Part shown: positions 6,768 to 62,660 of the stretch, one piece after another
How positions within the stretch are numbered: position 1 is the stretch's first letter
Layout of the letters: each line of letters begins with the position of its first letter
From: Verrucomicrobiota bacterium
GTDB lineage: Bacteria; Verrucomicrobiota; Verrucomicrobiia; Limisphaerales; UBA8199
Reading direction: 5' to 3'
Length of the DNA stretch: 64,000 nt
Assembly (NCBI GenBank): GCA_003176045.1
Contig: PSRM01000068.1
Location: 60,084-124,083 of the forward strand
Translations under genes and position numbers: made by a program
The notes under the pieces: model-generated
Databases searched by the model: none
Told to the model about the DNA's origin: nothing
What the model saw: the letters and a program-made list of their open reading frames with translations, nothing else

Positions 6768-6772
6768 TGGGT

Positions 6773-33528: not shown

Positions 33529-33604
33529 TTTTGATTTCCTCTTGTGAATAAGCGGGCGCGAGAAATAGAAACGCCGCTGGAAATCATCCAGCGGCGGGTT
33601 GGTC

Positions 33605-39828: not shown

Positions 39829-40461
39829 ATGACCTACCGATGTGTGGCGGCATCAGTTGCTGGGTTCGTGCAACAAGTGGCCGTGGGCTACATCGCCCAC
39901 GGTTACTATTTTTACGTGGCGGGTCGGATTCCGAATGGGAAAGAACCGTCCAAAACTGACTCAAAGATCATCGCCCAATACGGCATTGATGTCGCCAAAT
40001 GGACGAGGTCACGGCGTAAGCGAGCGGGCCAGGCTAATGTCCAATATCTGCGTTACGACCAATTCTACGTAATACTCGCGACTCACGGTGAACACGCGTT
40101 CTTCGTAGAGGAAGGGGACCGCATAAGGGATATACGCCAGCATCCGCTCCGATTCTTTGATTATTCGATTGGATGCCGAAAGTCCCGTCGAGGAGGTGAA
40201 CTGCACCCTTCGGTCCGGATTTCCCGGAAAGCTTTTCGCCAGTTGAAAACTCGGTTTGAGAAATCAGCGGTCAGTTCCACTTCTGACGAGCTATGGCAAG
40301 CACTGCGAAACATGCCGTTCGAACCTTACGCTCCGGTCCGCGATCAGTTCAGGATCCTCCTGCGGGCAGTGAATCGGATGCGAAAAACGGCGGGGCTGGA
40401 GTTAGTCCCTTGGACCGCTTGCCGCTTGCGCCGGTGTCCGGTAAAACCCTTCTCAGGTTGA
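39829..40461 (+). CDS. 210-aa hypothetical protein, paralogue of 46618..47208
   Basis: GGGAGA SD-like sequence upstream. Shared blocks are listed here with the 46618 copy in brackets: YFYVAG (FFYIAG), IRDIRQHPLRF..YSI (ARDMRQHPLHCMGYTI), RKTAGLELVPW (REAAGLPLVPR). Confidence 0.6.
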   Translation: MTYRCVAASVAGFVQQVAVGYIAHGYYFYVAGRIPNGKEPSKTDSKIIAQYGIDVAKWTRSRRKRAGQANVQYLRYDQFYVILATHGEHAFFVEEGDRIRDIRQHPLRFFDYSIGCRKSRRGGELHPSVRISRKAFRQLKTRFEKSAVSSTSDELWQALRNMPFEPYAPVRDQFRILLRAVNRMRKTAGLELVPWTACRLRRCPVKPFSG

Positions 40462-40611: not shown

Positions 40612-42408
40612 TCATAGGCTCGCTATAACGGTCTCCTTACCGAGGGCAGCGAGGCGTGCCTCCACCGCAGCCAGGTCAACCTGAATCCCCTTCGTAACAG
40701 CCCCGCGAGGCGGGTCGTCCACAAGCTGTGCAACCCTCGCGCCAAGCCGGGACACCTCTGCAAGCAATGCCGCGACCTGCATATCGTGCCGATCAACCGC
40801 CGAGTGGCTCTCGTAAACCCACTCATTTTCCAACAAATCGAACCACCCGGATACCGCTTCGGGAAGTTCAACGCGCGCCACGGACCTGTCGGTACCCCGT
40901 CGCTCCCCGCCTCTCGCCACAATTGCTCGTCTGAGTGCCGCGCGAGAATCGTTCTCGCCGTGAACCAGAAACACGCGCTTCAAGGGCCTGTACGGGTGAC
41001 TACTGTTCTTCCGCATAAGGAAATCCAGCAACCCGTTCCGGTCCGCGTGACCCGAGAAATAGTCGGAAAAATCTACGATCCGTGCCTGCACCTGGCCGTT
41101 AGATAGCGCCCAAAAGGCCGGATCTATCACCGCGGCCGCGTTAACTGCCCGCCGCTTCAGTTCGGCCCCAGGCGTTCCGGCCCCTTGGTATCCCGTAAGT
41201 ACCACAATCGTCCTTTCCGATGGCAATAGATTCTTCAGGTGTTCCGTAACCCGTCCGCCGTTACACATGCCGGCGCCAGCTATCACAATCCTAATGGCTG
41301 CATTCGTTCTTGAACCGTCAATGGTGTATGATAGTGAATAGTTTCTGCCTTGCTTGCTCCCGCCTGGAGGACAAAACAAAGTCGTGAGCAACGCGCCCGC
41401 CTCCTCCTCGGTCCCGGGGATCCTGCTTTGCAGCGCCGCGTTGCGATAGAAAGGCCTTCCATTTGGACGCGACCGAACCAACTGCTTCGCGTATACGGCT
41501 CCATACTTTCTTGCGAGCGGCGAATCCACCAGAATTTCGGCCACAAGCCGCGCCTCGGAGCCGGCACTTGGGAACCACGTCTGCCGCTCATCAGGAGTAA
41601 GCGCTACGTCCAACAGGTAATGCAAATCCATGACCAACTCTTGCATCCGCTGCAGGGTAAAGCAGGGGAACACAACAGTTGCTCCCACTCCGAGTTTGGC
41701 CGCCTGGCCCAACAGTCCCTTTAGGGCACTAATGCGACTCCAGAAGTCCATATATTTCTGGTCGCGATCGCGACCGCCGTACGTTGCCTCGCAGACGATA
41801 TACTCTGCATGAGTGGACGGGTACTGCCGCCCATTCAAAAGGGCCTGGTAAGGATTTTCATCAGTGTTGCATCCGATGTCTCCTGAGAACACGATCGTTC
41901 GACGCTCACTCGGCAAAGCTACGCTCCAGTCCGAGAACTGGAACTCGAAACCGACTGAACCCAAGATGTGCGAGCTCCTGATGAAAGCGCACGTCAGGTC
42001 CTTCTGGATCGGGAAGAATCTTCCAAACTCAAAACGGGGATGCTCATCCGGGCACGCAAACTCTAACCGGTTCACATCTGCTACCGAAAAACCGCAAGTG
42101 CCCAGTTCTGCCACATCCGTCAGCGCATGTCGTGTTAAGTCCGCGGTTGCGCGCGTGCAATATATTCTGCCTAGGAAACCCTCTTTCACGAGCTGGGGGA
42201 GCAAACCACAATGATCCAAGTGCGCATGAGTCAAAAAGACGGCACTTACTCCGCTTGGCTTGAAGGCGAACGCAGACTCACCAGCCTGCCGGGCTGCCTG
42301 TGAACCCTGAACCGCTCCGCAGTCCACTAGGTAATAGCAGCAGCCGTGATTCAGCAATATGCACGATCCCGTCACGCTCCCTAGAGCGCCAATAAATCGC
42401 ATTTTCAT
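40612..42408 (-). CDS. MBL-fold beta-CASP family nuclease (RNase J/CPSF73/SNM1-like) with a C-terminal extension
   Basis: FLTHAHLDHCGLLP (HxHxDH), a later GDIG motif, C-terminal YFSGHAD and FLVHGE. AAGGAG lies 6 nt upstream. Confidence 0.8.
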   Translation of the reverse strand: MKMRFIGALGSVTGSCILLNHGCCYYLVDCGAVQGSQAARQAGESAFAFKPSGVSAVFLTHAHLDHCGLLPQLVKEGFLGRIYCTRATADLTRHALTDVAELGTCGFSVADVNRLEFACPDEHPRFEFGRFFPIQKDLTCAFIRSSHILGSVGFEFQFSDWSVALPSERRTIVFSGDIGCNTDENPYQALLNGRQYPSTHAEYIVCEATYGGRDRDQKYMDFWSRISALKGLLGQAAKLGVGATVVFPCFTLQRMQELVMDLHYLLDVALTPDERQTWFPSAGSEARLVAEILVDSPLARKYGAVYAKQLVRSRPNGRPFYRNAALQSRIPGTEEEAGALLTTLFCPPGGSKQGRNYSLSYTIDGSRTNAAIRIVIAGAGMCNGGRVTEHLKNLLPSERTIVVLTGYQGAGTPGAELKRRAVNAAAVIDPAFWALSNGQVQARIVDFSDYFSGHADRNGLLDFLMRKNSSHPYRPLKRVFLVHGENDSRAALRRAIVARGGERRGTDRSVARVELPEAVSGWFDLLENEWVYESHSAVDRHDMQVAALLAEVSRLGARVAQLVDDPPRGAVTKGIQVDLAAVEARLAALGKETVIASL

Positions 42409-42420
42409 GACGCTCTCCTT

Positions 42421-44289
42421 TCATTGGTTAGCTGGGGCACTCGCTTGCTGGCCGAGATAGCACAACCTGAATCCGATTTTTTTGCCTTTGTATCGCCCAG
42501 TACTGCTTGGGGAAAATGGATGCGCCGACGGTGTGCGAATTGGATTGCAGAGCCCAGTCAGATAAAGCGTATTGACGGCGGCGCCCGGCTTATCGTTTAG
42601 CCACTCGCCAAAATGATTAGACACGAGAAACGCAAGCCCCTGCGGCGAATGCTTCCAGACAAGAGCCTGCGGGAGGAAGCGATACCTCATCGTGAAGATT
42701 CCCTCACCGGGACCCTGACTCTCTTCGCTTCTCATGGCCTTGAAATCGTCCGGGCCAAGCGGGCGCAGATTGTTGAATGGAAAAATCGAACCATCCGCCC
42801 GCAAGAATTGGCATAACCTGTCGTGCTCGACACTGTAAAAATAAGGATTCTTGGAAGCATCAGGCGGCTGAATCACCGCGCGAGCAATTGAATCGTATTC
42901 ACATTCAGTCAAGAGCCGCACCGGAAGTTTCTTTGTCTTGCTGGCCCAGGCTGCGTAAGCATTTGCGTCGTACCAAGTCGCCGCCGCCGGAAGAGAGCGG
43001 TCTTCGTCCGAATTAACGGTCGTCCAGTCATCTGAATCCTGAGGCCTCCGGCTATACCTCGCATAATCGGCGTTCTCCTGCATGAAAGCAGCGAATTCCG
43101 CGATTGTGACCAGGTTCGATACGTATAGCAGAGCTCCACCGACGTCGTAAGGAATGTAACCGTTCATCGGGCCGGACTCAGCTCGCGGAGCCTTATACTT
43201 TCCAGTTCCAAGCAAATAATTCCTCAAGATGATATCCGTCCCCGGATAATTTTTTGCGTCTCCCAGATTGGTATAGTAGTAGATCTCCGAGTGGTGCCGA
43301 TCTTCCTCCAGCCAGCCGCCATACTCAAAGTACAACCATCGCCTGAAGTGATAAGTGTCGTTTGACTTTGGCACATCACTGTTGCGCAGGTGAGGCGCAA
43401 AAGGGTTATGATCGAAGGGCTCATCTCGCAAACCCGGAAAGACGAAGTCGTACGCCCCGTCCCTCCCCTTGAGGAAGACTAAACACTTGTTGTAAGGCAC
43501 AACGTCCACCCACCCCTTCCCGAGCCTTTCGATCCACATCCGAAAAATCCTCGCCACCTCTCGCATTCTTTTCTCGTCCTTTTGGAACATGTCGGCGGGC
43601 TGAAGTTTGGTCTTGTACATGCAGGGAACGAATTTCAATGCGTACTCAGCGCCCTCGAAAGCCAGGAGCTGATCACCAAGCAGATTTCCGCATCCAAAAC
43701 GGATGGAGTAATCACATGCAGCCACTGCGGCGTCCAGCAGTTGTCGGCCCGATTCCGAAGACTCTCCGCCGGCCGCGGCAACCTCCTTCATCACGCTCTC
43801 AAAAGGCAGGCTAAACTCGACATCATAATCAGGGTGCTCACGCCACGGGTTCTTGTGGAAATACCGATTATTGAGCTCGAACCAATCAACGTCGTAGCCG
43901 GTAAATATCCGGCGAGGAAACAGTCCGCCCGGCAAAAAGATCCTGTCGGCCACTTCTCTCGGTTTGAGCGAGACCATGTCAAACCCAGGATCGGTCCTGT
44001 TAATCAAGTCCTTGCGGAAATTGAGCCCATTCCTTTCCATGAAGGGCACCAAACGATGTTCGTATTCCTGCCTATATCCGGCAAAGCCTCCGTTGAATCC
44101 AAGTCTCTTGGAAATATGGTTCAGGGCGGTTGTCTGCTTTAAGGTCTCTCTGTCCTGGTAATCTGTCCGCGTAAGCTTTGCAGCCCGCTTTATTGCATCG
44201 GGGGTGACATCACTCAGCGGAGCAATGTGGAAGTTGTCGAAGGGGATATAGCGAGCAGGCGTGACTGCAACAGTGCGATTGCTATGCAT
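42421..44289 (-). CDS. 622-aa protein with a C-terminal FGE-sulfatase (SUMF1-like) domain and an unknown N-terminal 400 aa
   Basis: ATWYDANAYAAWASKTKKLPVRLLTECEYD, NHFGEWLND, and a terminal KIGFRLCY, matching the formylglycine-generating-enzyme fold pattern. Confidence 0.7.
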   Translation of the reverse strand: MHSNRTVAVTPARYIPFDNFHIAPLSDVTPDAIKRAAKLTRTDYQDRETLKQTTALNHISKRLGFNGGFAGYRQEYEHRLVPFMERNGLNFRKDLINRTDPGFDMVSLKPREVADRIFLPGGLFPRRIFTGYDVDWFELNNRYFHKNPWREHPDYDVEFSLPFESVMKEVAAAGGESSESGRQLLDAAVAACDYSIRFGCGNLLGDQLLAFEGAEYALKFVPCMYKTKLQPADMFQKDEKRMREVARIFRMWIERLGKGWVDVVPYNKCLVFLKGRDGAYDFVFPGLRDEPFDHNPFAPHLRNSDVPKSNDTYHFRRWLYFEYGGWLEEDRHHSEIYYYTNLGDAKNYPGTDIILRNYLLGTGKYKAPRAESGPMNGYIPYDVGGALLYVSNLVTIAEFAAFMQENADYARYSRRPQDSDDWTTVNSDEDRSLPAAATWYDANAYAAWASKTKKLPVRLLTECEYDSIARAVIQPPDASKNPYFYSVEHDRLCQFLRADGSIFPFNNLRPLGPDDFKAMRSEESQGPGEGIFTMRYRFLPQALVWKHSPQGLAFLVSNHFGEWLNDKPGAAVNTLYLTGLCNPIRTPSAHPFSPSSTGRYKGKKIGFRLCYLGQQASAPANQ

Positions 44290-44474
44290 ATGATCTTTAA
44301 GTTCTTAACGGCCATTATGCCCTCCGTGATGGTTTCAGAACTTGAAGAACAAACTATGCAATCTGCTTAACTGCGAACTGTCTTAACGATTTGTTTGCAC
44401 CCCGGAGGGCATCATTTGCAACCGCTGGCCGTTAACCACCGCCGAAAGTTTCGCACAGGCTCAGGGATTTGCAA

Positions 44475-44504
44475 GTGCATTCCGGACCGGTGCATTCCGG
44501 ACCG
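44475..44504. repeat. Perfect tandem duplication of the 15-mer GTGCATTCCGGACCG
   Basis: Read directly: units at 44475-44489 and 44490-44504, between the RadC stop and the FGE-domain gene start. Confidence 0.8.
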
Positions 44505-44543
44505 GGGATCGGGTCGGTTTCTTGTATCAACTCGGCACAGGCC

Positions 44544-45164
44544 CTAATAAAAATAACCGAGCTCTCTTAAGCTGACCCAATCTCTTGCCTGCGCGTCAGT
44601 TCTCCGGCCCAGGATGACATGATCGAGCACCTCGATGTGGAGCAGTTGACCCGCTCTGATCAAATCGCGGGTGACTTTGATGTCTGCCTCGCTTGGAGTC
44701 GGATCGCCACTGGGGTGGTTGTGCGCCAGGATGATCGCTGCGGCTCGGCGACTGATTGCCCCAAGAAATACCTCGCGCGGTTGTACCAGAATTGTATCAA
44801 GGGTTCCTTGCGAAATTGTCTCCATGGCGATCAATCGTCTGCGAGTGTTCAGATACACCACCTGAAAATTCTCGACTGTGAGCAGGCGATTCGGCTCCCG
44901 CAATAAATCGGCGATCCGATCGGGCGTGTCTAGCAGGGGAGCCTCGCCGTAGGTTTCGCGGCTCAAACGTTGCGCAAGCAGAAATGCCGATTTTATCGCC
45001 GCAGCCTTTGATTTTCCGATGCCTTTGACGGCCTGCAGATCATCAAATGAGGCCTGGGCCAGATTTGTGAGTCCCCCATATTTTTCCATTAAAGCGTCCG
45101 CGGCGGGCTCACCGGCGAGAGTGGAGAGCAAGTCTTTGTTGTTGGCGTGTTCAAAAGGTTCCAT
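44544..45164 (-). CDS. radC: RadC-like JAB/MPN domain protein
   Basis: HhH-like N-terminus (LQAVKGIGKSKAAAI) and the JAMM motif ILAHNHPSGDPTPSEADIKVT. Confidence 0.9.
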   Translation of the reverse strand: MEPFEHANNKDLLSTLAGEPAADALMEKYGGLTNLAQASFDDLQAVKGIGKSKAAAIKSAFLLAQRLSRETYGEAPLLDTPDRIADLLREPNRLLTVENFQVVYLNTRRRLIAMETISQGTLDTILVQPREVFLGAISRRAAAIILAHNHPSGDPTPSEADIKVTRDLIRAGQLLHIEVLDHVILGRRTDAQARDWVSLRELGYFY

Positions 45165-45580
45165 TGGTTCCTCCCGTGAACGCGGACTCTAACACCGTTT
45201 CCGTTGGCAGGGAATGCCCGGAAGCCTGACATCATCTTGTCAAAAATTGCGAATCAGAACGGGGACTTAACCGAGACTCACGCTCTCGTGATCAGCCCAA
45301 GACCCCGGAGTGCCCCAACCCGTTGACTTGGAGACAGTGTTTGCGGCATTAATGTCATTGGGTAGAAGGAGGGTTTTCTGTCGCGTTTTCTGCGGCTGGT
45401 TATGAGTCGAATGCAACGCCTTTCCTAATTTCAATTTCCCTTCGCAACCGCTCGTCCTTGAACGGCGGATTGTGAATGGAAGCTTCGATCAAGAGCTAAA
45501 GTGTGCCGCTATGCGCTTGGTCGGGACAAAAACAAAGCAAGCCGAGTAAAACCGGACTGCGGCACTGGAAAGAGCAATGC

Positions 45581-46438
45581 ATGAGACTGAACGAACAAAC
45601 GTCGAACTTTAAGGCGGTCGCCTTAGGGGACGACATGCTCCGCAGCCAGGCACCGAGCATCTTTGCAACGGGGCCAATGCAGGGCGTCAGCAGCCGTTAC
45701 ACATTCGTGCCGACTTCTCGAATCGTTTCGGGATTGAGGGAACACGATTGGGTTCCGGTGGAAGTGGAAGAGCAACGCATCCGCAAGGAAGACAGGCGGG
45801 GTTTTCAGAAGCACCTGATACGGTTTCGTCTTGCCACGCAGATGCAGACGTTGGCCGAATGGAACGTGGAACTGGTCCTGCTCAACTCGCACGATCGGGG
45901 TTGCGCATATCAACTTCACGCGGGGATCTTCCGGCGAATCTGTTCCAATGGATTGGTGATGAGCGAAGGGTCATTTGAGGCCATTCGCTTTCGTCATTCC
46001 AATTTGGAAGCGGAGAAAGTTGTTCAAGCGAGTTTTCGCCTGCTCGACTACGTTCCGAAGGTCGGCGAGATGGTCAATCGGTTCCGCGCCCGCGCTCTTG
46101 ATTCCCAGGAATCAACCGCGTTGGCCGGCCACGCACTCTTGTTGCGCTATGGCAGCATGGAGCGCGCACCCGTCGAAGCTGCAACGCTCCTGACCTCGCG
46201 TCGTTCGGAAGATGAGGGAACGGATCTGTGGACAACCATGAACCGCGTTCAAGAGAACCTGATTCGTGGTGGCGTTTCCGATTTCCGCAAGGACCGTCGT
46301 GGCCGGCTGCGATCGGTGAGGGCAATACGAGGCATTGATTCCAAAGTCAATTTGAACAAGGGACTTTGGAGCCTGGCTGAAAAACTGGCCAATGGTCAAC
46401 CGCTGGATGATGCCGAGCGGGTTGCACTTGCGAATTGA
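45581..46438 (+). CDS. DUF932 (DUF945) family protein
   Basis: Trimmed to MRLNEQTSNF. Motifs: APSIFATGP...SSRYTFVPT, FQKHLIRFRL, LLNSHDRGCAYQLHAGIFRRICSNGLV. Confidence 0.85.
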   Translation: MRLNEQTSNFKAVALGDDMLRSQAPSIFATGPMQGVSSRYTFVPTSRIVSGLREHDWVPVEVEEQRIRKEDRRGFQKHLIRFRLATQMQTLAEWNVELVLLNSHDRGCAYQLHAGIFRRICSNGLVMSEGSFEAIRFRHSNLEAEKVVQASFRLLDYVPKVGEMVNRFRARALDSQESTALAGHALLLRYGSMERAPVEAATLLTSRRSEDEGTDLWTTMNRVQENLIRGGVSDFRKDRRGRLRSVRAIRGIDSKVNLNKGLWSLAEKLANGQPLDDAERVALAN

Positions 46439-46617: not shown

Positions 46618-47208
46618 ATGATCAAGGGTTTTATCGTCGAGTCCCGCGAGGAATGCATGCGTGAAATAACGGATGTGCTAATTCCGAACAAATTTTTCTT
46701 TTACATAGCTGGACAGTGTCGGCGCGAGCCGCCAGCAATAGAGGATGAAAACACTCTGCAGATTTTTGAAGCCGCCGTGTCGAAGCTCGGCGCGACTGAG
46801 TTCGAAGCCGAATTGCGGTTTTATCGGTGGGGCGCGTGGCGGATTGTCGCGGGGACTGAAAGAGTTGTTCCCGTCTTTAAAGAGGCGAGAGCGCCGGCGC
46901 GTGATATGCGACAGCACCCGCTCCATTGTATGGGGTATACCATCAAGGCCATTCAGCTAGGCGACGAGGAACATTACCAAGCATACGTTGAAATCACTCG
47001 CGAGTTTCTCGGGCTTTTTGAACCTCGCTGGCTCAATTTCGCGCTCAAATGGTCCGTCGAGCAGATTGCAAAAGATTTTTCACAAGTAGATTACGTTAGA
47101 TATCCGCAGGTTCTTGCGGAGGTTGAGAGAATTCTTGCTGTTATCAACGAGCGGCGAGAAGCGGCGGGATTGCCACTCGTTCCGCGCGATGCGTTGTTCA
47201 TTACCTGA
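46618..47208 (+). CDS. 196-aa hypothetical protein, paralogue of 39829..40461
   Basis: See 39829..40461. The N-terminal length before the FFYIAG block is the same in both. Confidence 0.55.
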   Translation: MIKGFIVESREECMREITDVLIPNKFFFYIAGQCRREPPAIEDENTLQIFEAAVSKLGATEFEAELRFYRWGAWRIVAGTERVVPVFKEARAPARDMRQHPLHCMGYTIKAIQLGDEEHYQAYVEITREFLGLFEPRWLNFALKWSVEQIAKDFSQVDYVRYPQVLAEVERILAVINERREAAGLPLVPRDALFIT

Positions 47209-47437: not shown

Positions 47438-47914
47438 TCAGCAGTCTGGACATGCGTTGCCTGCACCTTCGCACCCAGCGAGGTTCTCCCGAGCAGCGAG
47501 GAAAGAAAGTATCTCGCGCTGCGTGATCCGCCATGAGTCCTCCCAACCAGCTACGAAACTGAATTTGAATTGTTGGTAGTGGCGCATAGCCAGATTCTGG
47601 TCTCCGCTTGCGTCCATCAAAAGCGCCAAAGCTAACTGGGCCGGACCACTACCGCCGTATCCCCATTCAAAGCCAGCCGGGCTATGGTTTCGTGCCTGAA
47701 GGCATAACGGCAATGGCCGTGAGGAAACTTGAGCTTCCGTCGAACCCTCGGGCACTGGTTCTTCTACATAAACTCGGCAAATCCCGTCGGCCTCGCGGAA
47801 GCCGGTGTAAGCTTTTTCAACCTGTTTTGGTAAGAGTAAGGAGGGGAGGGCGGTTTTTGGAAGCTCTGGTTCGAGTGCTCCATTTTGCTGTTGTTCACGC
47901 TGTTGTCGCTCCAT
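47438..47914 (-). CDS. 158-aa hypothetical protein with a GFEWGYGGSGPAQLALAL motif (paralogue of 48754..49257)
   Basis: GGGGGAGG lies 7 nt upstream. The core LPLCL..RNHSP.GFEWGY.GSGPAQLALAL is shared with the paralogue. Confidence 0.65.
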   Translation of the reverse strand: MERQQREQQQNGALEPELPKTALPSLLLPKQVEKAYTGFREADGICRVYVEEPVPEGSTEAQVSSRPLPLCLQARNHSPAGFEWGYGGSGPAQLALALLMDASGDQNLAMRHYQQFKFSFVAGWEDSWRITQREILSFLAARENLAGCEGAGNACPDC

Positions 47915-47990
47915 ACCAGCACCTCCCCCGAATGATCGTTTGTCTCACGCCTGCCAATTCTAATCAACTACCGTTTGTCAAATCGCGCGT

Positions 47991-48701
47991 CTAAGGCCGC
48001 GAGCGCGTATTTTTCCAAGTGCTTCCATCCGCAAAGGCCAATCCAGTTCCCCAGCCCAGTGCGCGTCGGCAGGCTGCGATTGTGGTGCCGGTCGTGATTA
48101 CATTATCTACGAAATAAGCCGGCATTACCTGCATTGGTCCTGCGACTCGAATGATCGCGTGTTGCTCGATATTGAGTCCAAAGCGGCCGTCCAAGCGGCG
48201 GTCACACGACGACTCCACAGGATGGGAGCGAGTAAGCGCGCACTTGACTCGGGCGCGAGGGACCAAAGCGGCGATAGCACGAGCCAACTCGAGGTTCGCG
48301 GTTAGGGTGCCATCACTGGCGGGGACTGGAACCAGCCAACACGGAGCGTCAATGAGCGCGGCCATTGCGGGCGCAGCAATTTCAATGGCGTCTTCGAGGC
48401 CGTCCTTAAGCTGCCAGGCTATCCGGCGCGCGCGTCGCTCCTCCGCGGTGACGGTTCGCCATTCAACGGGAACGTATTTGGAAGCGTAACGATCCGTGTG
48501 AACAAGGACTGACGCCTGAGAATCAAGCACTGGGATCCGGAGCTTCGCCCGATTTGAGTCGGGGGCGTCTTGATGATAGCCTTTTCGCTGGGCGCGAGTG
48601 TCAACTCCGTTGGCGGCGAGAGATGGAAGTTTTAAAGCGGAGAGGCCAGAGGCAGGGGCTTGTATCGAGTTCCGACCCGATTTATCAAGATGTTGTTCCA
48701 C
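47991..48701 (-). CDS. Phosphoribosyltransferase-fold protein (ComF-like)
   Basis: The C-terminal YFVDNVITTGTTIAACRRAL is the PRPP-binding loop of type I PRTases. GTG start. Confidence 0.65.
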   Translation of the reverse strand: MEQHLDKSGRNSIQAPASGLSALKLPSLAANGVDTRAQRKGYHQDAPDSNRAKLRIPVLDSQASVLVHTDRYASKYVPVEWRTVTAEERRARRIAWQLKDGLEDAIEIAAPAMAALIDAPCWLVPVPASDGTLTANLELARAIAALVPRARVKCALTRSHPVESSCDRRLDGRFGLNIEQHAIIRVAGPMQVMPAYFVDNVITTGTTIAACRRALGWGTGLAFADGSTWKNTRSRP

Positions 48702-48753
48702 TTCTCCCTGGCCTCCCCTGATTTCCCGGTTATGTCACATCTTGAAAACCAAA

Positions 48754-49257
48754 TCAAACACGGTTGCTCGCGCTGCCGATTCCAGAGGCAGCCGATTCGT
48801 CTTCCGAGATGTTTGGCGGGTGTCCCTTCAATTCTTTAAGCCCGTCATCTTCGATGCCGGCATGTTCGCGGACATTTCTAGCTGAGATGGTCCAGTTGTT
48901 ATCCCAATATGCAACAACGTCTCGCTTGAAACCTTGATAATTGCGAAGCGCGATTCTTTCGTCGCCGGTGGCGTCGAGCATTAGCGCCAAGGCCAACTGT
49001 GCAGGCCCGCTTCCCTCGTATCCCCACTCGAAACCGCACGGACTATGGTTTCGAACTTCGAGGCACAACGGCAGAGTTCGAGACGCCTTTCCCCGTCTGG
49101 AGCCTCGGACGGGCTCCTCGACCCAAACTTCGACTTTGCCATTCCTGCGCCTGATACCATGATAAGCTTTTTGATACGGAGCCGGCATTGTCAAAGCGGA
49201 GAGGGCTGTTTCTGAAACCTGCTTTCTGACTCTTTGGTTTGTATCTTGCCGTTCCAT
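48754..49257 (-). CDS. 167-aa hypothetical protein, paralogue of 47438..47914
   Basis: GGGGAGG lies 7 nt upstream. It shares the GFEWGYEGSGPAQLALAL core. Confidence 0.65.
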   Translation of the reverse strand: MERQDTNQRVRKQVSETALSALTMPAPYQKAYHGIRRRNGKVEVWVEEPVRGSRRGKASRTLPLCLEVRNHSPCGFEWGYEGSGPAQLALALMLDATGDERIALRNYQGFKRDVVAYWDNNWTISARNVREHAGIEDDGLKELKGHPPNISEDESAASGIGSASNRV

Positions 49258-49397
49258 ACAAGCGCCTCCCCGCGTTGAAATGTTATCTCAAAACACGAGA
49301 CCTTAATCAAACGGTGTTGAATCGATCATCCAGATCTCGCCCGGACGTTCCAGAGACGACCCTTTTCCAGGGGAATTCGCGAGGTTAGGCAAGCGAT

Positions 49398-49676
49398 TCA
49401 GGAAAGGCGTTCCGGATGGAAGAAATCCAGTAATCGCACGCTAAATTGTGGTTGCGTTAGTTGAAGTTTGTTCAGATGTTCGAGAGCCGCTTGCTGATCA
49501 TCCGCTGTGAAATCGCCGCCGCATTTGGGGCAAAGGTGCTCAGAGAAGTTTGGCGCTGCGTCGAACATGTCCCCTGCGAAAAGGTTGGTTAGAATGCTTT
49601 GCCGAATGACACCCTGGCAATGATGGCAACAGATTTTGTATTCCAGAAGGGGACGCTCCTCAGCAAGTATGCGCAT
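49398..49676 (-). CDS. 92-aa zinc-ribbon protein (start uncertain)
   Basis: Track ORF 49398..49982 trimmed to avoid a 239-nt overlap with the upstream gene. Cys pairs CCHHCQG...CPKCGG. An alternative start lies at 49778. Confidence 0.4.
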   Translation of the reverse strand: MRILAEERPLLEYKICCHHCQGVIRQSILTNLFAGDMFDAAPNFSEHLCPKCGGDFTADDQQAALEHLNKLQLTQPQFSVRLLDFFHPERLS

Positions 49677-49743
49677 AATACCTTTGTGCGTGCGACGGCG
49701 GACGATGAGTTCGCGTTTGTGTTTCACGATTCCTGGTCCCAAG

Positions 49744-50547
49744 TTATGCCGCAATCCTTTCCCGGGCGTGTTCCACATATCTCGTTCGATACGGTACGAC
49801 ACACTCGTGCAACATAGCCGAGGTCGGAACGTGAGCAAGCGGAGCTGAGCGTAGCATCGCTCTGACCTGTTGTCGGATGAATGCGCCCATCTGAGGCCAA
49901 GTGATCCGATGCATCTCAACAGCATTAACTGCCGGCGGGATTGGCACCTGGTGTGAGCGAGCAACGAATTCCCCTCCATCAATCACGTCGGTGACTTTGT
50001 GAATTGTAAGGACAAGATGCTTTCGTCCATCCCGCACCATAGCGGCAATTGGATCGGGGCCGGGATACGACGGCCACGTGTCGCCGCTGTGATGGAAATT
50101 GAAGAATCCAAGCGACGGAAAGTTGATCAAAGCAGTCGGAATCTTCTGGCCGAATGTTGCCATTAGGCAAAGCTGCGGCCGCCATTCTTCCAAAAAAGCG
50201 GTGAAGAATTCTGGCGTTTTTATGCGACCCACATAACAAGGAATCTGCCGGGCCGCCACCAAGAGCGGGACCATTTTTTCCTCATATTGTGCGTGGGGGT
50301 ATTTCCAGAGGCGAACATCAGCGTGCGAAAATGGCTGACGAGGATCGTCCGTTGCCACACCGACAATTTCGACCTGCCGTGCCAGGTCCCCCGAGAGCAA
50401 TTCTTTGATTACATGGTAACCGCCATGGAAGCTCCCGAACACGGCCACACGACATTTAGTTCTGGGATCATCGAGCCGACGGTGGGGAAGGCGGAGGATG
50501 TTCGCTCCGCATATTGCCGAAGAAGCAGCCGCATTCATTTCACGCAA
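49744..50547 (-). CDS. Formyltransferase-fold protein (Fmt/PurN N-domain-like)
   Basis: FNFHHSGDTWPSYPGPDPIAAMV resembles the NxHxSLLPxxRG loop. It is followed by KVTDVIDGGEFV (Asp of the catalytic triad). TTG start. Confidence 0.6.
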   Translation of the reverse strand: MREMNAAASSAICGANILRLPHRRLDDPRTKCRVAVFGSFHGGYHVIKELLSGDLARQVEIVGVATDDPRQPFSHADVRLWKYPHAQYEEKMVPLLVAARQIPCYVGRIKTPEFFTAFLEEWRPQLCLMATFGQKIPTALINFPSLGFFNFHHSGDTWPSYPGPDPIAAMVRDGRKHLVLTIHKVTDVIDGGEFVARSHQVPIPPAVNAVEMHRITWPQMGAFIRQQVRAMLRSAPLAHVPTSAMLHECVVPYRTRYVEHARERIAA

Positions 50548-50808
50548 GTTTTGCTGCGCGCGAACAAACTGCGGGAGCTAAAAGGGCGTGACCCAATCAC
50601 ACCCTCGCTAGAGGCACCGCGAAGCGCCCATCAAGAAAGTGCGTCAAGCCACGCCCAAGGGGTGGGCGCAGCCTTTGCAGCTTGGTCTCTTGATTGAAAA
50701 TTCGCGGTTTTCTAGCGAGACCGCAGCCGAAGCTACGCAAATTTATGTTGAGTAGATGTCGTGCCAGCGGCCGTAAAAAGCAAGATTTTTTTGAAAAGTT
50801 CGTGGAGG

Positions 50809-51828
50809 CTACGGCATCCACTTCGGCCGACCGAGAGCTTTCAGGACACCGGTCCTGCGAAGAAGCCGTTCGACGTAAGCGACTGTATGTTGGGCATGAT
50901 CCGAGTTTTCGGCAGATGACGCGGCCAAACCGCGCTCGAAAAAAAAGGTCCCACTGGAGTGGTGAACGACAGGTTCGGGGCGTAGGTCTGGAGAGCCGTT
51001 ATCCAGAAGCCATGCCAGCACATTCATCATAAAGCGGGCATTGTCAGGCCGGGTGAGCAGACCGAATCGTCCTGTTTCGAACGCGTGCGGCCCCCCAATC
51101 AGCACAAATCGGCCCCCTCCGTGCAATCCTGCAACCGCTATCGGAAGAGAGGCGAAACTGATTCTACGAGCCGAGCGATTGAAGCTGATGCAGGTCCCGC
51201 CGGCTGAAAGAGCCAACGGTTGTGCTTCGGCACCCGGCAAGATGTTGAAAGTCGCCGTCGTTCGCCAGCGAACACTGCTCACATGAAGATTTGACCAGTG
51301 TAGGGGAAGCAGATTGCGGGGCGTATCAAAGAATGCTTCGAGAGGGTTCATGGTACGCAGTGTCTGCAAATCGATCACCGCGTCATCGTTCAAAAGGCAA
51401 CCAAGCGGGCTCACAAGTTCGCGTAGATTGGAGCGCGTAAACCAATCGCCGAAACGATAAGCAAAAGCGAGCAGCCTGCCGCCGCTCCGCACAAAGTTGA
51501 GGATGTCGCGAATATGTTCCGACGCGAACGATGACTCAGCGAGTGGCGACCAGCATTCCTTCGCAGCATTGTAGGCCCCGGTTGGGGGTGGAATCACGAG
51601 CAAGCGGGCATCTGTCAAACGCGCCTGCGATAGCGGCTGACTGACGGGAGCGCAACGGCAGCCCATACGGCACAGCAACTCCATCAGGCCAGCATAATTC
51701 GTATGCATTTCACGGGACGTGAATCCGGTTTGTGACCAGTTGGGCTGCCCGTGACTGGCATCGAAAATCGCGAGGGATGGTTTGCGCTCCTTGATTATGG
51801 AACCCACTTGCGCGCTTTCTCGCTTCAT
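50809..51828 (-). CDS. 339-aa hypothetical protein, possible GATase1-like/DUF4350-like fold
   Basis: The pattern AIFDASHGQ...LLVIPPP...FVRSGGRLLAF is reminiscent of DUF4350/GldG-like domains (from memory, weak). Confidence 0.4.
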   Translation of the reverse strand: MKRESAQVGSIIKERKPSLAIFDASHGQPNWSQTGFTSREMHTNYAGLMELLCRMGCRCAPVSQPLSQARLTDARLLVIPPPTGAYNAAKECWSPLAESSFASEHIRDILNFVRSGGRLLAFAYRFGDWFTRSNLRELVSPLGCLLNDDAVIDLQTLRTMNPLEAFFDTPRNLLPLHWSNLHVSSVRWRTTATFNILPGAEAQPLALSAGGTCISFNRSARRISFASLPIAVAGLHGGGRFVLIGGPHAFETGRFGLLTRPDNARFMMNVLAWLLDNGSPDLRPEPVVHHSSGTFFFERGLAASSAENSDHAQHTVAYVERLLRRTGVLKALGRPKWMP

Positions 51829-51852
51829 CTCCCTTCTCGCTCAGAACTAGTT

Positions 51853-52293
51853 TCAGTAGTCTGCCGGAAGCAGCACGGTTGTGACTCTTCGGTCGGCCTC
51901 GGTTATTACCCAAAATTTTTTGCCGGTGCTTGATTCATACTTGGAAAAGAGCCGTTCACCATCACGCAATGCCTTGTCATTTCGCTGCCAATCCGCTTGG
52001 TCCAGGACCCCCCAATCTCCGGCGGCATGCCTTTGAACGGCTTTAAGGATCTCGTCGGCGGGTACGGACTTGGCAACTCCTTCGGTTACACATAGACGGC
52101 CAAAAGCAAACCGGGGTTTTGCTTTCACCTGCATCTTGACCTGGGGCTCTAATGGCGAGAGGAATCTGGTTGGGTCCGATTCAGACGCCGTAAGTGCATG
52201 TCTTTGGAATTCCTCATAAGGCAAGGGAACTTCACCACGTCGCTCTGCGTGCAGTTGGTGGACTCGGTACAACGCATCCTGGGCATTATTCAT
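51853..52293 (-). CDS. 146-aa paralogue of the 33605..33889 small protein
   Basis: Trimmed to MNNAQDAL (GAGGA 6 nt upstream). C-terminus HAAGDWG...FWVITEADRRVTTVLLPADY. Confidence 0.6.
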   Translation of the reverse strand: MNNAQDALYRVHQLHAERRGEVPLPYEEFQRHALTASESDPTRFLSPLEPQVKMQVKAKPRFAFGRLCVTEGVAKSVPADEILKAVQRHAAGDWGVLDQADWQRNDKALRDGERLFSKYESSTGKKFWVITEADRRVTTVLLPADY

Positions 52294-52377
52294 GAAGGGT
52301 CCTCGTAAATGATAACTGGTTTTCGTCCATAACACGATTTTACTGGTGAATGCAACAAGGCTGACCGGCGGACTCCG

Positions 52378-55300
52378 TCAACCTGGTTCATCCGAAGACT
52401 TTCCCTCGCCTTGCTGGTCAGGTCCGTTTGCTGCTTGCTGCGGTTCAAGCTGACCGGATGTTTGGCTTTTTGTTAAGTCGAGTTCATCTTCAATTTCGCG
52501 CTGTCGTTGCACCAAAGCCGCGAGGCGGTCCGCATACTCGAACGGTGCGTCCACCTGCGCTCGGCTGTCGGCGAGCCGCTTCTGAGTATCGGCAATATTC
52601 TGTCCAATCGTTGCCGCGAGCTCTTCAAGATGCTGAATTGTATGCTCCACGGAACGTATGGTGCCGTGAGCGGTGTCTGTTACTTTGGCGACATAAGTCG
52701 TGGCTCCCTTTATGACGATTTCCGGCCCCTGCATGAAGTTGTCAGCAACGAATAAGTCGAAACCTGCAATCTTCCCGATCTGTCGTTCAGAACGGCCGCC
52801 GCGCATCTTTTCGGCGCGGCGAATCAACAACTCGCCAGCGATCCCTCGGTCTCGAATCTCCTGACCTTCTAGAATCATCATGAACTTATCTCCGTTCGTG
52901 TCCTCACGGACCTTTAGGTCCTGCCGTACGGCTTCAAGTCGCTTCTCATGTGCTGGGATTTCATCAGCTAAATGTCGAACACGAGTTCGGAGCTTGAACA
53001 TGGTCTCTTGGTGTTCGCAATGCAGACGGCTCAGGCGGCCGACTTCGGCGTCAATTCGAGCTTTTTCGATGACCAGGGGATTTCCTGACGCGATTGCCTT
53101 GACTTCGGCATAAGTAAGAGCCGCGCCGTCTATGTCCTCAATGCGCCGCAGATCGCTTTCTCCGGTCATGACCTGGCTGATGAACTTCGCCTTCGTCTCC
53201 AATACTTGCCACATATATGCGTCGAAAGATTCTTCGGTAACATAGCGGTATATTTGGACCTCGGCGTTGGAGTTACCCTGCCTAAGGATACGTCCCTCGC
53301 GCTGCTCCACATCAGCGGGGCGCCACGGTGCGTCCAGGTGATGGAGAGCGATAAGGCGTTCCTGCACGTTAGCGCCAGTCCCCATTTTTTGCGTGCTGCC
53401 GAACAGGACGCGAATTTTTCCAGCCCTAACGTCTTTGAAAAGCGTGAGCTTCGCGGCGTCACTTTCGTAGTCCTGTATGAACGCGATCTCGCCCGCGGGA
53501 ACTCCAGCGAGGATGAGCTTGTCGCGCATATCCTCGTAAACAGAAAATCCTTTGTTTTGAGTGGGGATTGAGAGGTCACAGAAAACAAGTTGAGTGGAGC
53601 GATTGTTCATGGTGTCGCGCCAAATGCGCTCAATTTGGCGCACTGCTTGGTTAATTTTGCTATCGCCATGGTCTGGCAAACTGGCTTCGTGAAGCCGGAG
53701 GTCCAAAGCAGCCTTGCGCCCATCCGTGGTGACCAGAAGCATATTATCCTCGCGAGGATCAACACTCCCTGTCTTCAAAGCTTCGGCTCGTTCCACGAGA
53801 GATTGAACGATTTCCTTCAATTCGGGTGAGCAGGGGGCACTGACTACCGTGGGTTTGCCGCCGTGAAGGTCGGGCACGGGCAGCTTCAGCATCTCCTGGG
53901 TTTGAATGTCGGCGACCTGCCGAAACATCTGCATCAATTCAGGCACGTTTATGAAGCGCGCAAAGCGAGTGTGAAGCCGATACCCCGACCCATCCGGGGA
54001 GAGCTCGAGCGCGGTCACTGGTTCGCCGAAGGTAGCCGCCCACGAGTCAAAGTGAGCAACGCTTTGACCCTTGAGCAAACTCATTTCGAGAAAGCGCTGC
54101 ATCGTGAACATCTCAGCGACGCTGTTGGCGATGGGTGTGCCAGTGGCGAAAACAACTCCACCTCCACCGTTGATTCGCTGTACATGTCCAACTTTTAGGA
54201 ACATGTCAAAAGCCCGTTGTGAGGCGGTCTGAGGAAGCCCGGCGATGCGGGTCATTTTCGTGACATAGAATAGATTCTTAAAATAGTGCGCCTCGTCCAC
54301 GAATATGCGGTCCACACCAAGTTCCTCGAACGTCAGACCGTCGTCCTTCTTCTCATCTGCCGAAAGTTCCTTGAGTTTTGTTTCCAACTGTTTTTTCGAG
54401 CGTTCCAGCGCTTTTACGATTCGGGAATCTCCATCCTTTCGCTGTTGTTCGATTGCGAGCGCCAGCTCCCGCAAGTTCGCTTTGAAGAATTCTTCCTGTG
54501 TCGCGCGGGCGACGGGGATTTTTTCGAAGCCTGAGTGAGTAACGATCACGGCATCCCAGTTGCCGGTTGCGATTCGGCTCATCAGGGTCTTTCGCTTGTC
54601 CTTTTCGAAATCGTCCTTGGTGGCGACCAGAATATTCGCCCCGGGATATAACGCTAGCAGTTCTGATGAGAATTGACCCAGCATGTGATTTGGAACCGCG
54701 AAGAGTGTTTTACGCGCTAATCCGAGGCGCTTCAATTCCATGGCGGCCGCAACCATTGCGAACGTCTTCCCGGCGCCGACGACATGGGCGAGCAGGCAGT
54801 TGGGGGTCTGTAGAATCCGCCATACGGCGGCTTTTTGGTGGGGACGCAGCGTGATTGCCGGACTTGCGCCTGGCAAGGTTAAGTGGTCTCCGTTGAAAGT
54901 TCGTAATCGGGTGTGGTTGAATTCATCGTTGTATTTTCGGACAAGGCGTTCGCGTCGCTCATCATCCCGCCAGATCCATTGCTTGAAGCGCTCCTTCAAC
55001 TTCTCCTGCTTATCGCGGGCGGCCTCAGTGGCAGGCCCATTGATCACGTCGCGGTCCGTGTCGGGGTCATGGTCGTACACTGTCGGAACCCGCAAGTTGA
55101 GCGCATCCTCAATCAACTCAATAGCGCTCCTGCGGTCCGTACCCCATTCAGTAGTGTTGGCAACACTGAAGCGGGCGCCGTATCCGCCCCGTATAACCCA
55201 AAGGCCCAACTGTGGCGCATGGCTGACAGAAATGCCTTCCTCTCCAAGTAATTCAGCAGTGAAGATTTGAACATCTTGGGCCGGAATCCAGGTGCTTCCC

Positions 55301-57255: not shown

Positions 57256-57458
57256 GCCTGACCGTGGGCTTGCTCGGGAGTCAAACCCTGGCTGATCAAA
57301 TCGCGGCGAACCCGATCCATTTCCGCTTCCGTTTTCTCCTCGGCTTCCAGCAGCATCACCGGAAGCTGGCGCTTCGATTCCAGTTCCTCGACCATTCTCG
57401 GCAGAAACTCCCGCCAATGTTTCTCGGCCATTAAGCCGTATTGTGTCAGTGGTTTCAT
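57207..57458 (-). CDS. 83-aa small helical protein (TnpV-like by loose resemblance)
   Basis: Trimmed to MKPLTQYGLMAEKHWREFLP...AWEMVRERYIFLPPET. It reads as a genuine protein, whereas the overlapping frame of the giant ORF is G/S-rich low complexity. Confidence 0.55.
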   Translation of the reverse strand: MKPLTQYGLMAEKHWREFLPRMVEELESKRQLPVMLLEAEEKTEAEMDRVRRDLISQGLTPEQAHGQAWEMVRERYIFLPPET

Positions 57459-60424: not shown

Positions 60425-60457
60425 GCGATCATTAACACAATACTGTCAGTCTGCCGG

Positions 60458-61855: not shown

Positions 61856-61925
61856 ATCACAACATGTACTGATTGAAGCCGCATCTCAAGCCAAAACCAT
61901 AAAACCATATCTGTTGTCGCTAAAT

Positions 61926-62642: not shown

Positions 62643-62660
62643 TGCTAGAATGACGGCTGC

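Follow-up and report, generated by a model that had tools for sequence, protein, structure and literature searches.

Does a phosphoribosyltransferase (PRTase)-like gene that lies between two small paralogous genes form a three-part system with them, or are these genes separate pieces of mobile-element cargo? We addressed this question for a locus in the window, a 64,000-nucleotide stretch of DNA (Table 1). Judged by its predicted genes, the window is a MOBF-type, type IV secretion system (T4SS)-bearing conjugative element of a Verrucomicrobia bacterium. The original prediction described a PRTase gene flanked by two small paralogues, all on the minus strand, and we found the three open reading frames arranged in this way, with gaps of 52 and 76 nt between them.

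Table 1. Genes, motifs, and start signals in the window, with positions numbered from its first nucleotide.
Feature	Position	Strand	Details	Basis
TrbI, T4SS gene	12776-13792			Pfam
TraG-P-loop ATPase, T4SS gene	17943-20564			Pfam
T4 coupling protein	27951-29396	+		Pfam
TrwC relaxase-helicase	29488-32235	+		Pfam
ArdC	32653-33732	-	with polyvalent-type metallopeptidase (MPTase-PolyVal)	Pfam
RadC-like JAB protein	44544-45164	-		Pfam PF04002, E 1.6e-38
DUF932 protein	45503-46438	+		Pfam PF06067, E 4.2e-37
DUF6166 paralogue b	47438-47914	-	158 aa, ATG start	Pfam PF19663, E 6.9e-28, 97 bits
DUF6166 motif, copy b	47621-47713	-	residues L68-L98: LPLCLQARNHSPAGFEWGYGGSGPAQLALAL; DNA repeat D1	
Shine-Dalgarno GGGGAGG of copy b	47922-47928	-	7 nt 5' of ATG	
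PRTase-like protein	47991-48701	-	236 aa, GTG start; putative solo invasive-element type	
PRPP loop VDNVITTGTT	48081-48110	-	residues 198-207, invariant D199-N200	
Shine-Dalgarno GGGGAGG of PRTase gene	48712-48718	-	10 nt 5' of GTG	
DUF6166 paralogue a	48754-49257	-	167 aa, ATG start	Pfam PF19663, E 3.7e-26, 91.5 bits
DUF6166 loop-helix motif, copy a	48982-49074	-	residues L62-L92: LPLCLEVRNHSPCGFEWGYEGSGPAQLALAL	
Shine-Dalgarno GGGGAGG of copy a	49265-49271	-	7 nt 5' of ATG	
Formyltransferase-like gene	49744-50547	-		Pfam PF00551, E 2.5e-12
339-aa gene, weakly DUF4350-like	50809-51828	-		Pfam
160-aa gene	51853-52335	-	in the upstream conserved block (49744-52335)	
1719-aa protein, SNF2-type helicase	52378-57537	-		Pfam SNF2-rel_dom, ResIII, Helicase_C

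The near identity claimed for the ribosome-binding regions of the two paralogues was also recovered, with GGGGAGG at exactly the same distance from both ATGs. Given the identical strong Shine-Dalgarno (SD) sequences, all three genes would be translated efficiently. The window holds 14 copies of this heptamer compared with 8.1 expected, and three of these 14 occurrences are at the starts of the trio genes. The two paralogues, hereafter copies a and b, share 51% identity over 135 residues (BLASTP E 1e-47), 70% identity over 148 nt of their cores at the DNA level (repeat D1), and the motif LPLCL..RNHSP.GFEWGY.GSGPAQLALAL. Their homology runs continuously through the SD and the spacer into the first codons (GGGGAGGyGCTkGTATGGA), so the similarity of their ribosome-binding regions reflects common descent. 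We rejected a recent tandem duplication at this site, because a homologue from another element (P0122) is closer to each copy (68% identity to copy a and 59% to copy b) than the two copies are to each other (51-52%). This pattern argues for an old divergence of copies a and b, which are DUF6166 paralogues. As for the "structured element B" that had been placed directly upstream of copy a, the intergenic segment at 49250-49420 shows no folding advantage over shuffled sequence (z = 0.15) and no ssDNA-promoter-like structure, and has no Rfam match; such an element was therefore not recovered. The window as a whole contains zero Rfam families and zero tRNAs.

The PRTase-like protein has a conserved core at approximately residues 68-236 and a low-complexity extension (residues 1-67) that is found only in its closest relatives; most members of the family begin just ahead of the PRT core. 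It contains YFVDNVITTGTT, and its PRPP loop reads YFV-D-N-VITTGTT (residues 196-207). By the criterion for type I PRTases, namely a hydrophobic strand, two acidic residues, and x-x-T-[TS]-G-x-T, this loop is present though atypical, with Asn for the second acidic residue. D199, N200, and G205 are invariant across 74 diverse family members, and "DN" was found in 214 of the 215 motif-bearing family sequences. In line with the PRTase assignment first made for this gene, the PRPP loop is conserved, albeit with an invariant Asn at the second acidic position.

Family placement was examined at several levels. The window protein itself had zero matches to Pfam PF00156 even at E ≤ 10 and no other Pfam match, and its matches to ComF (E 0.036) and ShosT (E 0.043) were weak. 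Among the 74 family members, 17 matched PF00156 (best E 1.3e-5), 29 matched ComF TIGR00201 (best E 1.9e-6, a score well short of the curated cut-off), and 11 matched GntX. When the diverse profile A3 was compared with PDB, the top matches were PyrR (best E 0.0026), APRT, and PRPP synthetase; these align on the PRPP loop, and almost all others at E ≤ 0.1 are PRTases. The close alignments A1 and A2 had no match in PDB. Taken at the profile level, membership of the window protein in the PRTase superfamily is supported transitively through its family rather than directly. The fold assignment draws on sequence profiles only, because the AF2 model of this protein was poor (mean pLDDT 46.9), with an input alignment that was too shallow and uniform. 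The domain family has 834 representatives at E ≤ 1e-3 when domains within polyvalent proteins are included, and it is strongly basic (median pI 9.7). In PHROGs, the only match was phrog_7188, for which the function is unknown.

The description of this protein as ComF-like holds in part. ComF/GntX is the nearest named family, and the PRPP loop of ComFC from Helicobacter pylori, DDIITTGTTL (PMC9005727), and that of the window protein are nearly superimposable (YFLLDDIITTGTTL versus YFVDNVITTGTTI). However, the window protein scored 14 bits against ComF TIGR00201, for which the curated cut-off is 233.55, and has Asn for the second Asp of the loop. The N-terminal 4-Cys zinc finger that is required for ComFC function (PMC9005727) is absent, and C121 is the only Cys within residues 1-121. 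Moreover, the gene is located on a conjugative element, and the competence genes comFA, comE, and dprA are absent among its neighbors, unlike what is expected for ComF/ComFC. ComFC binds PRPP, nucleotides, and ssDNA (PMC9005727). The window family resembles ComFC and GntX in being basic, as a nucleic-acid binder would be, and resembles ComFC in being tied to single-stranded DNA entering a cell.

Another counterpart is the clade of PRTases from invasive elements that was described in a computational study (Iyer, Burroughs, Anand, de Souza & Aravind 2017, J Bacteriol; PMC5512222). Phages and conjugative elements carry its members, either solo or inside giant polyvalent proteins, with a bias toward Proteobacteria and Verrucomicrobia (PMC5512222). 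They are ComFC-like, with a second strand that is followed by a conserved Arg, and have a function that was called "enigmatic" (PMC5512222). Matched on the description in that paper, the window protein is a predicted member of this clade, and its near-invariant R158 is, by sequence, the putative counterpart of the conserved Arg. One difference is that the clade was described as having a "characteristic catalytic DD motif" (PMC5512222), whereas the family studied here has D-N as given above. Set against the text description in that paper, the D-N family may be a sister of the invasive-element clade, or that clade itself under a loose description. The embedding in polyvalent proteins was recovered independently of that study; proteins of 1,100-4,600 aa carry the PRTase domain beside LPD1/22/38, ART-PolyVal, PBECR5, ddrB-ParB, RadC, and Zeta toxin. 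In genomes, we found 29 PRTase loci, mostly in Verrucomicrobiota MAGs, and the PRTase loci include phage-like contigs (L002-L004). A scan of IMG/VR with alignment A1 gave two loci, and tblastn of the window PRTase against PLSDB plasmids and GenBank phages gave no match. This mobile-element clade, pointed out by computation in 2017, still lacks an assigned function; the clade-wide D-N loop, the consistent basic charge, and RadC as a recurrent neighbor and fusion partner are new.

The family of the two small proteins, which was left unplaced at first reading, is Pfam PF19663 (DUF6166). Both copies score far above the cut-off of 27 bits and keep all invariant residues of the family motif, HSPxGFEWGYxGSGPAQLA. 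Positions S72, F76, W78, G79, Y80, G82, S83, G84, A86, Q87, L88, and L90 (copy a numbering) are invariant in 42 DUF6166 members. In the AF2 model of copy a (mean pLDDT 80.5, core above 90), this loop-helix motif corresponds to the loop at residues 62-82 and the start of the helix at residues 83-97. No fold relatives were found in PDB or BFVD; as modeled, the DUF6166 fold is confidently predicted yet unmatched. Literature searches on DUF6166 and PF19663 returned nothing, and PADLOC and PHROGs gave no useful matches. DUF6166 proteins have a size of approximately 120 aa, and clustering at 90% identity gives at least 7,963 clusters. Bacterial as well as haloarchaeal phages, plasmids, and ICEs carry them, which places DUF6166 among the larger uncharacterized families of small proteins that phages and plasmids encode in bacteria and archaea alike. 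Compared with PF19663 at large, the window copies carry an extra N-terminus of approximately 30 residues and C-terminal tails, both restricted to a Verrucomicrobia-type subclade. A reading of DUF6166 as a DNA mimic similar to ArdA was rejected, given the median pI of 6.3 for the family and the pI of 8.6 for copy a.

With both families placed, the question of whether they belong together can be approached through their distributions. The original prediction was that the duplicated small proteins suggest a hetero-oligomeric assembly with the PRTase. As a dedicated module, DUF6166 would serve as a subunit, regulator, or substrate-presenting partner, and the paralogues would hetero-oligomerize with the PRTase; the shared strand, the close spacing (52 and 76 nt), and the identical SDs are what such a module would look like. 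However, a PRTase was found within the flanks of only four of the 166 DUF6166-anchored loci (1.73 Mb) and is missing from the other 162, although many of the fetched contigs are short and the power to detect co-occurrence is reduced accordingly. The reciprocal search gave an adjacent DUF6166 at none of the 23 PRTase-anchored loci and a DUF6166 within 3 kb at two of 16. None of the 80 viral DUF6166 loci from IMG/VR has a PRTase nearby, and no DUF6166 domain was found in the 32 multidomain PRTase proteins (≥330 aa), such that fusions between the two are absent. Also counting against a dedicated module, DUF6166 has about ten times the spread of the PRTase family and reaches haloarchaeal plasmids, whereas the PRTase found no tblastn match in the plasmid collection. 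Finally, having two DUF6166 genes within 2 kb is unusual, with one case in 166 other loci. The sole other close pair found, in Haloferax volcanii pHV4, encloses unrelated small genes.

Comparison with sister elements provides finer resolution. The upstream conserved block (49744-52335) is followed in these elements by a PRTase, a DUF6166, or both. In the same syntenic slot, only the PRTase is present in L006 and L007, and only DUF6166 is present in L013 and the P0122 contig, which is difficult to reconcile with a dedicated module. On the other hand, two closely related elements from peat metagenomes (L049 and L066) have a PRTase-to-DUF6166 junction that is orthologous to the one between the window PRTase and copy b, and this orthologous adjacency is restricted to them. 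In these two elements, the DUF6166 gene located 3' of the PRTase is orthologous to copy b (53-55% identity), and the junction, including the stop-to-start gap, SD, and spacer, is conserved at the DNA level, which indicates that the PRTase and DUF6166b were inherited as a unit in that lineage. Both genes also lie 1.4-1.6 kb apart in L021, L024, and L113, or 1.4-3.2 kb apart when L122 is included. Given the lineage-inherited junction and the loci with both genes nearby, some functional link between the PRTase and DUF6166 may exist. The expected co-occurrence elsewhere was thus largely absent (4/166, 0/23, and 0/80), except for the two-gene junction in L049 and L066, and the proposed assembly of all three proteins was not supported. 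We consider the dedicated module doubtful.

The formyltransferase-like gene directly upstream on the same strand raises another explanation, namely that this gene, the 339-aa gene, and the PRTase gene constitute one pathway for the biosynthesis or modification of a nucleotide or base, which would use PRPP to produce a modified nucleotide or a DNA modification, with DUF6166 as an accessory. PRTases and formyltransferases work jointly in purine synthesis, and the formyltransferase-like gene (PF00551, E 2.5e-12) is adjacent to the PRTase in L006 and L007 and separated from it by one gene in L066. Yet the closest relative of copy a, P0122, is encoded directly 3' of a formyltransferase-like gene without a PRTase, and the formyltransferase block likewise occurs with DUF6166 alone in L013. 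Furthermore, a formyltransferase cluster was found near none of the 29 genome-derived PRTase loci, and the polyvalent proteins that contain the PRTase domain show no formyltransferase fusion. A biosynthetic operon is therefore very unlikely. In the gene order of the relatives, two junctions occur separately, one from the formyltransferase-like gene to DUF6166a and the other from the PRTase to DUF6166b, and the arrangement in the window looks like both of them combined.

The window protein also resembles ShosT as a PRTase-fold protein in a conflict context, and small neighboring genes are typical of toxin-antitoxin pairs. A toxin-antitoxin-like or abortive module, in which the PRTase is a ShosT-like toxic effector that is neutralized by DUF6166, is nevertheless extremely improbable. 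The PADLOC match to ShosT (residues 89-215, E 0.043) is not significant, and no DNA_processg_A/DprA domain, as expected for the DprA-like partner ShosA of the Shosta system, was present among the scanned neighbors. Unlike that system, the window gene is located in the accessory island of a mobile element. In addition, the PRTase usually occurs without DUF6166, which would be intolerable for a toxin that needs this antitoxin, and DUF6166 occurs overwhelmingly without the PRTase.

Since the two families almost never travel together, the trio is best understood as mix-and-match cargo rather than a three-part machine. We estimate a probability of about 60% that these genes are separate accessory cassettes in an island with ArdC, RadC, DUF932, and the SNF2 helicase, and do not form a dedicated three-component system. 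Taken alone, the locus is ordinary modular cargo from two uncharacterized families. The counter-immune context that was originally suggested did stand, as the trio sits in a counter-defense-type island (ArdC, RadC, DUF932, and the SNF2 protein) of a conjugative element. This island lies 3' of the TrwC relaxase gene, on the strand opposite to it, and no oriT could be located; a position in the leading region, which enters a recipient first, would thus be conjectural. The DUF932 gene is syntenic in L006, L013, L049, and the P0122 contig. Like the islands for anti-defense and establishment that conjugative plasmids carry (Samuel et al. 2024; PMC11541004), the island has co-oriented small accessory genes. 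It also resembles such islands, or "unfused" polyvalent toolkits, in placing these genes beside ArdC, RadC, and a large helicase and in having cassettes that vary among relatives. Neither DUF6166 nor the PRTase clade is named in that paper or its supplementary files (Samuel et al. 2024; PMC11541004).

As separate cassettes, the three genes would probably be expressed upon entry of the element into a new host. The PRTase-like protein would act similarly to ComFC or PyrR by binding PRPP or a nucleotide, and would probably bind single-stranded nucleic acid while the DNA enters or becomes established; alternatively, a nucleotide-type molecule would be its product or its substrate. Each DUF6166 copy would act alone and use its invariant loop to target a ligand or protein of the host, and the two diverged copies probably differ in specificity. 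A bolder reading, which we regard as speculative and unlikely, is that DUF6166 represents a new and very widespread class of counter-defense or establishment proteins, with its own fold and an HSPxGFEWGYxGSGP loop that binds a host nucleotide-type signal or defense protein, and that it became functionally coupled to the PRTase in a Verrucomicrobia lineage by way of the conserved PRTase-to-DUF6166 junction. If so, this coupling would provide a first handle on the role of the "enigmatic" PRTase clade. The locus is a pointer to two uncharacterized families that are candidate anti-defense or establishment factors, and if either proves to be one, the catalog of plasmid and phage counter-defense proteins would be extended.

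The PRTase loci and fusions point to a different recurrent partner for the PRTase. RadC is its most frequent neighbor (11 of the 29 genome-derived PRTase loci), lies directly upstream of it in L018 and L027-L029, and is fused to it in three proteins (P0347, P0338, and P0376). The likely partners of the PRTase-like protein are functions of the RadC type, not DUF6166. The large helicase of the island is also linked to the PRTase in P0366, in which the PRTase domain is fused in one polypeptide with a homologue of the 1719-aa SNF2-helicase protein (residues 1519-3210 of P0366, phmmer E = 0).

The original prediction of a ComF-like phosphoribosyltransferase (PRTase) fold between two paralogues stands in both parts, but its reading of the three genes as one system does not: the DUF6166-PRTase-DUF6166 "sandwich" is a lineage-specific arrangement. 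The three minus-strand ORFs were recovered at exactly the predicted coordinates. The small proteins, DUF6166a and DUF6166b, are indeed paralogous, with 51% identity (E 1e-47) and the common motif LPLCL..RNHSP.GFEWGY.GSGPAQLALAL, and their cores are 70% identical across 148 nt at the DNA level. Their ribosome-binding regions are near-identical as proposed, with the Shine-Dalgarno (SD) sequence GGGGAGG found 7 nt upstream of both ATGs; the same heptamer lies 10 nt upstream of the PRTase GTG. It occurs 14 times in the window (8.1 expected), and three of these are at the starts of the trio, whose products would be translated from strong, identical SDs. Because the paralogue homology extends across the SD and spacer, this likeness is inherited rather than convergent. 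A "structured element B" had been placed just upstream; however, 49250-49420 folds no better than shuffled sequences (z 0.15), and no Rfam family or tRNA was found anywhere in the window.

Features of the window considered in this analysis
Feature	Position	Strand	Remark
SMC/AAA_23-like ATPase and AIPR protein	4415-8632	-	ATPase 4415-6661; AIPR 6773-8632
TPR + CHAT (caspase-like protease) protein (1232 aa) and preceding gene	22066-26870	+	preceding gene with weak, sub-threshold DUF4384 match
~200-aa protein	39829-40461	+	paralogue of 46618-47208
MBL/beta-CASP/RMMBL nuclease-type protein (598 aa), then FGE-sulfatase (formylglycine-generating-enzyme-like) domain protein (622 aa)	40612-44289	-	same co-oriented island; ArdC on one side, RadC on the other
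Perfect tandem 15-nt direct repeat	44475-44504		in intergenic region 44290-44543
RadC	44544-45164	-	
~200-aa protein	46618-47208	+	paralogue of 39829-40461
DUF6166b, 158 aa	47438-47914	-	ORF
PRTase-like protein, 236 aa	47991-48701	-	ORF, GTG start
DUF6166a, 167 aa	48754-49257	-	ORF
ORF with zinc-ribbon-like end	49398-49982	-	overlaps 3' end of formyltransferase-like gene
Formyltransferase-like block	49744-52335	-	three genes
SNF2/ResIII-helicase protein, 1719 aa	52378-57537	-	

The claim of a dedicated three-gene assembly was contradicted by gene distributions obtained with our own HMMs. A PRTase gene was found in only 4 of the 166 DUF6166-anchored loci (1.73 Mb) and near DUF6166 in none of 80 IMG/VR viral loci. 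Conversely, among PRTase-anchored loci with sufficient flank, DUF6166 was present within 500 bp in 0/23 and within 3 kb in 2/16, and none of the 32 PRTase-containing proteins of at least 330 aa carries a DUF6166 domain. With these counts, a TA-like module is scarcely credible. In related elements that share the flanking genes, the slot after the formyltransferase gene is filled in four ways: PRTase alone (L006 and L007), DUF6166 alone (L013 and the contig of the DUF6166 relative P0122), a PcfJ-like gene followed by PRTase and DUF6166 (the peat-metagenome loci L049 and L066), and DUF6166, PRTase, DUF6166 in the window. A pathway joining the formyltransferase and the PRTase, to which the shared slot might point, is very improbable, given that DUF6166 alone may occupy the same position. 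The junction from the PRTase stop to the DUF6166b start, including SD and spacer, is kept at the DNA level in L049 and L066. This would fit a genuine PRTase-DUF6166 pair, which we consider unlikely in view of the counts. The window thus joins formyltransferase-DUF6166a with PRTase-DUF6166b, each of which is seen apart from the other elsewhere. The identity, distribution, independence, and fusion partners of the three genes are shown by these comparisons and those below.

By profile score, both small proteins belong to a known domain family, Pfam PF19663 (DUF6166; 91.5 and 97 bits, cut-off 27). This family has at least 7,963 clusters at 90% identity (profile search, E<=1e-5), and its members are usually ~120 aa long. 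We found it on 101 PLSDB plasmids, chiefly haloarchaeal megaplasmids and often in multiple copies per replicon, in at least 272 stretches of IMG/VR viral contigs, and on metagenomic fragments of conjugative elements. The neighbors are mixed (integrases, primases, ArdC, ParB-methylase, repressors, RecT, and terminase), each in at most 10 of the 166 loci. Across 42 diverse members, 12 residues do not vary, namely, S72, F76, W78, G79, Y80, G82, S83, G84, A86, Q87, L88, and L90. The AF2 model has high confidence (mean pLDDT 80.5, core >90): three strands at the N terminus lead into a long conserved loop, followed by two helices, one strand, and a last helix. DUF6166 is a compact domain in which the invariant loop-helix motif is likely to form the binding or active site. 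A Foldseek search against PDB and BFVD found no relative; thus, there is no obvious likeness to anti-defense proteins with structures in those libraries. An ArdA-type DNA mimic was ruled out by the near-neutral charge of the family, and a literature search for DUF6166 found nothing. P0122 is nearer in identity to each of the two copies than these are to one another, which indicates that the paralogues predate the element lineage; they probably differ in target. The only other tight pair found is on Haloferax volcanii pHV4 (L124, 45861-47589), where 640 bp, holding two small, unrelated hypothetical genes, separate the DUF6166 copies. This pair starts a co-oriented string toward DUF6610 and an ArdC-like gene. 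The arrangement resembles that of the window, and no PRTase was recognized between the copies as judged without the PRTase HMM. The chief remaining value of this analysis lies in DUF6166 as a very widespread mobile-element family.

The middle protein contains the predicted PRPP loop (YFVDNVITTGTT). It matched no Pfam model and had weak matches only to ComF (E 0.036, residues 118-215), an OPRT-like model, and ShosT. Its family comprises 363 word-index hits and 834 representatives at E<=1e-3 (exhaustive HMM search). Among 74 diverse members, P125, P127, D199, N200, and G205 are invariant, and matches were found to ComF TIGR00201 (29/74, best E 1.9e-6), Pfam Pribosyltran (17/74, best E 1.3e-5), GntX (11/74), and, in fewer members, APRT, PyrR, and OPRT models. 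The best PDB matches of the family profile (E<=0.1) are nearly all type I PRTases (PyrR, APRT, and PRPP synthetase), aligned at the PRPP loop. The ComF-like PRTase fold is therefore supported transitively, through relatives and profile. A true ComF was rejected: the score is far under the cut-off, the context has no competence genes, and the 4-Cys zinc finger, needed according to H. pylori work (PMC9005727), is absent, with a single Cys in residues 1-121. The loop also differs, being DDIITTGTT in ComFC and DNVITTGTT here. D-N is present in 214 of 215 motif-bearing family sequences, including domains within giant proteins, so the Asn is no peculiarity of this protein. With a median pI of 9.7, the family is strongly basic; the AF2 model (pLDDT 47) was too poor for use.

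This PRTase appears by sequence to be a new member of a clade known from computational work. Iyer et al. (2017; PMC5512222) described the domain within polyvalent proteins encoded by phages and conjugative elements, with related solo versions, chiefly in Proteobacteria and Verrucomicrobia. They placed it as a separate group within the superfamily that has an Arg after the second strand in common with ComFC, and termed its role "somewhat enigmatic," suggesting nucleotide production or sensing at DNA entry. The sole discrepancy is their "DD motif" versus our D-N, in a comparison with the text rather than an alignment. The window is from a Verrucomicrobia MAG, and the 29 genomic PRTase loci recovered are mostly from Verrucomicrobiota MAGs. 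RadC is present in 11 of these 29, directly upstream in four, and three giant proteins combine RadC and the PRTase domain in a single chain. The exhaustive search found the domain embedded in proteins of 1,100-4,600 aa, with hallmark polyvalent-protein domains (ddrB-ParB, PBECR5, LPD22, ART-PolyVal, LPD1, LPD38, RadC, Zeta toxin, an ADP-ribosyltransferase, GNAT, topoisomerase IB, and GGDEF) in Pfam scans. One of these (P0366, 4,596 aa) joins the PRTase domain to a ~1,700-residue segment homologous to the 1719-aa helicase protein of the window, such that the window island looks like an unfused polyvalent protein. The D-N loop and RadC observations are of further value for this clade. A metagenomic homologue (P0033, 308 aa) has a C-terminal fused domain starting FGPVIYAYTRSQAVADGFQIEVTK, which we take to be a sequence type of plasmid accessory genes.

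We propose that the trio proteins act separately as accessory proteins of the counter-defense or establishment toolkit of the element. The PRTase would operate in a ComFC/PyrR-like mode, with a nucleotide- or PRPP-binding pocket that retains the loop in its D-N variant. Being basic, it probably touches single-stranded nucleic acid at DNA entry; alternatively, the protein might synthesize or consume a nucleotide-type molecule. The PRTase would work alongside RadC-type functions.

The window is a conjugative element, with Pfam matches to TrbI, TraG-P-loop ATPase, type IV coupling protein, TrwC relaxase-helicase, and ArdC with a polyvalent-type metallopeptidase. The region of the trio also contains genes for the MBL/beta-CASP nuclease, the FGE-sulfatase-domain protein, RadC, DUF932, the formyltransferase-like protein, two unknowns, and the SNF2-type helicase protein. 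As oriT was not located, "leading region" is an analogy for this island rather than a finding. Across ~57900-64000, G+C drops from ~0.54 to ~0.48, and radical-SAM-type genes start at ~58 kb; this drop may be the edge of the element. Beyond it is a small biosynthetic-looking cluster (B12-radical-SAM, HemN-like radical SAM, TauD-family dioxygenase, and class II aaRS-like protein).

The formyltransferase-like gene (PF00551) forms a block with a 339-aa weakly DUF4350-like gene and a 160-aa gene, and this block recurs in L006/L007, L013, and L066. L006/L007 have two tandem copies of the 160-aa gene, whose family is a repeated DUF6166 neighbor (five loci). The C-terminal ~90 residues of the overlapping ORF resemble a small CxxC...CxxC zinc-ribbon (MRILAEERPLLEYKICCHHCQ...CPKCGG), with weak Pfam zinc-ribbon matches only, and may belong to a small gene of their own immediately before DUF6166a. 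The direct repeat (GTGCATTCCGGACCG x2) is just downstream of the RadC stop. The two ~200-aa paralogues form one BLAST cluster with no family match, and have homologues at the edge of syntenic islands in L006, L013, and L049. The TPR-CHAT pair, between T4SS genes and the coupling-protein/relaxase operon, looks like a defense- or conflict-type module. The adjoining AIPR (abortive-infection-type) and ATPase genes, also beside T4SS genes, are possible defense cargo.
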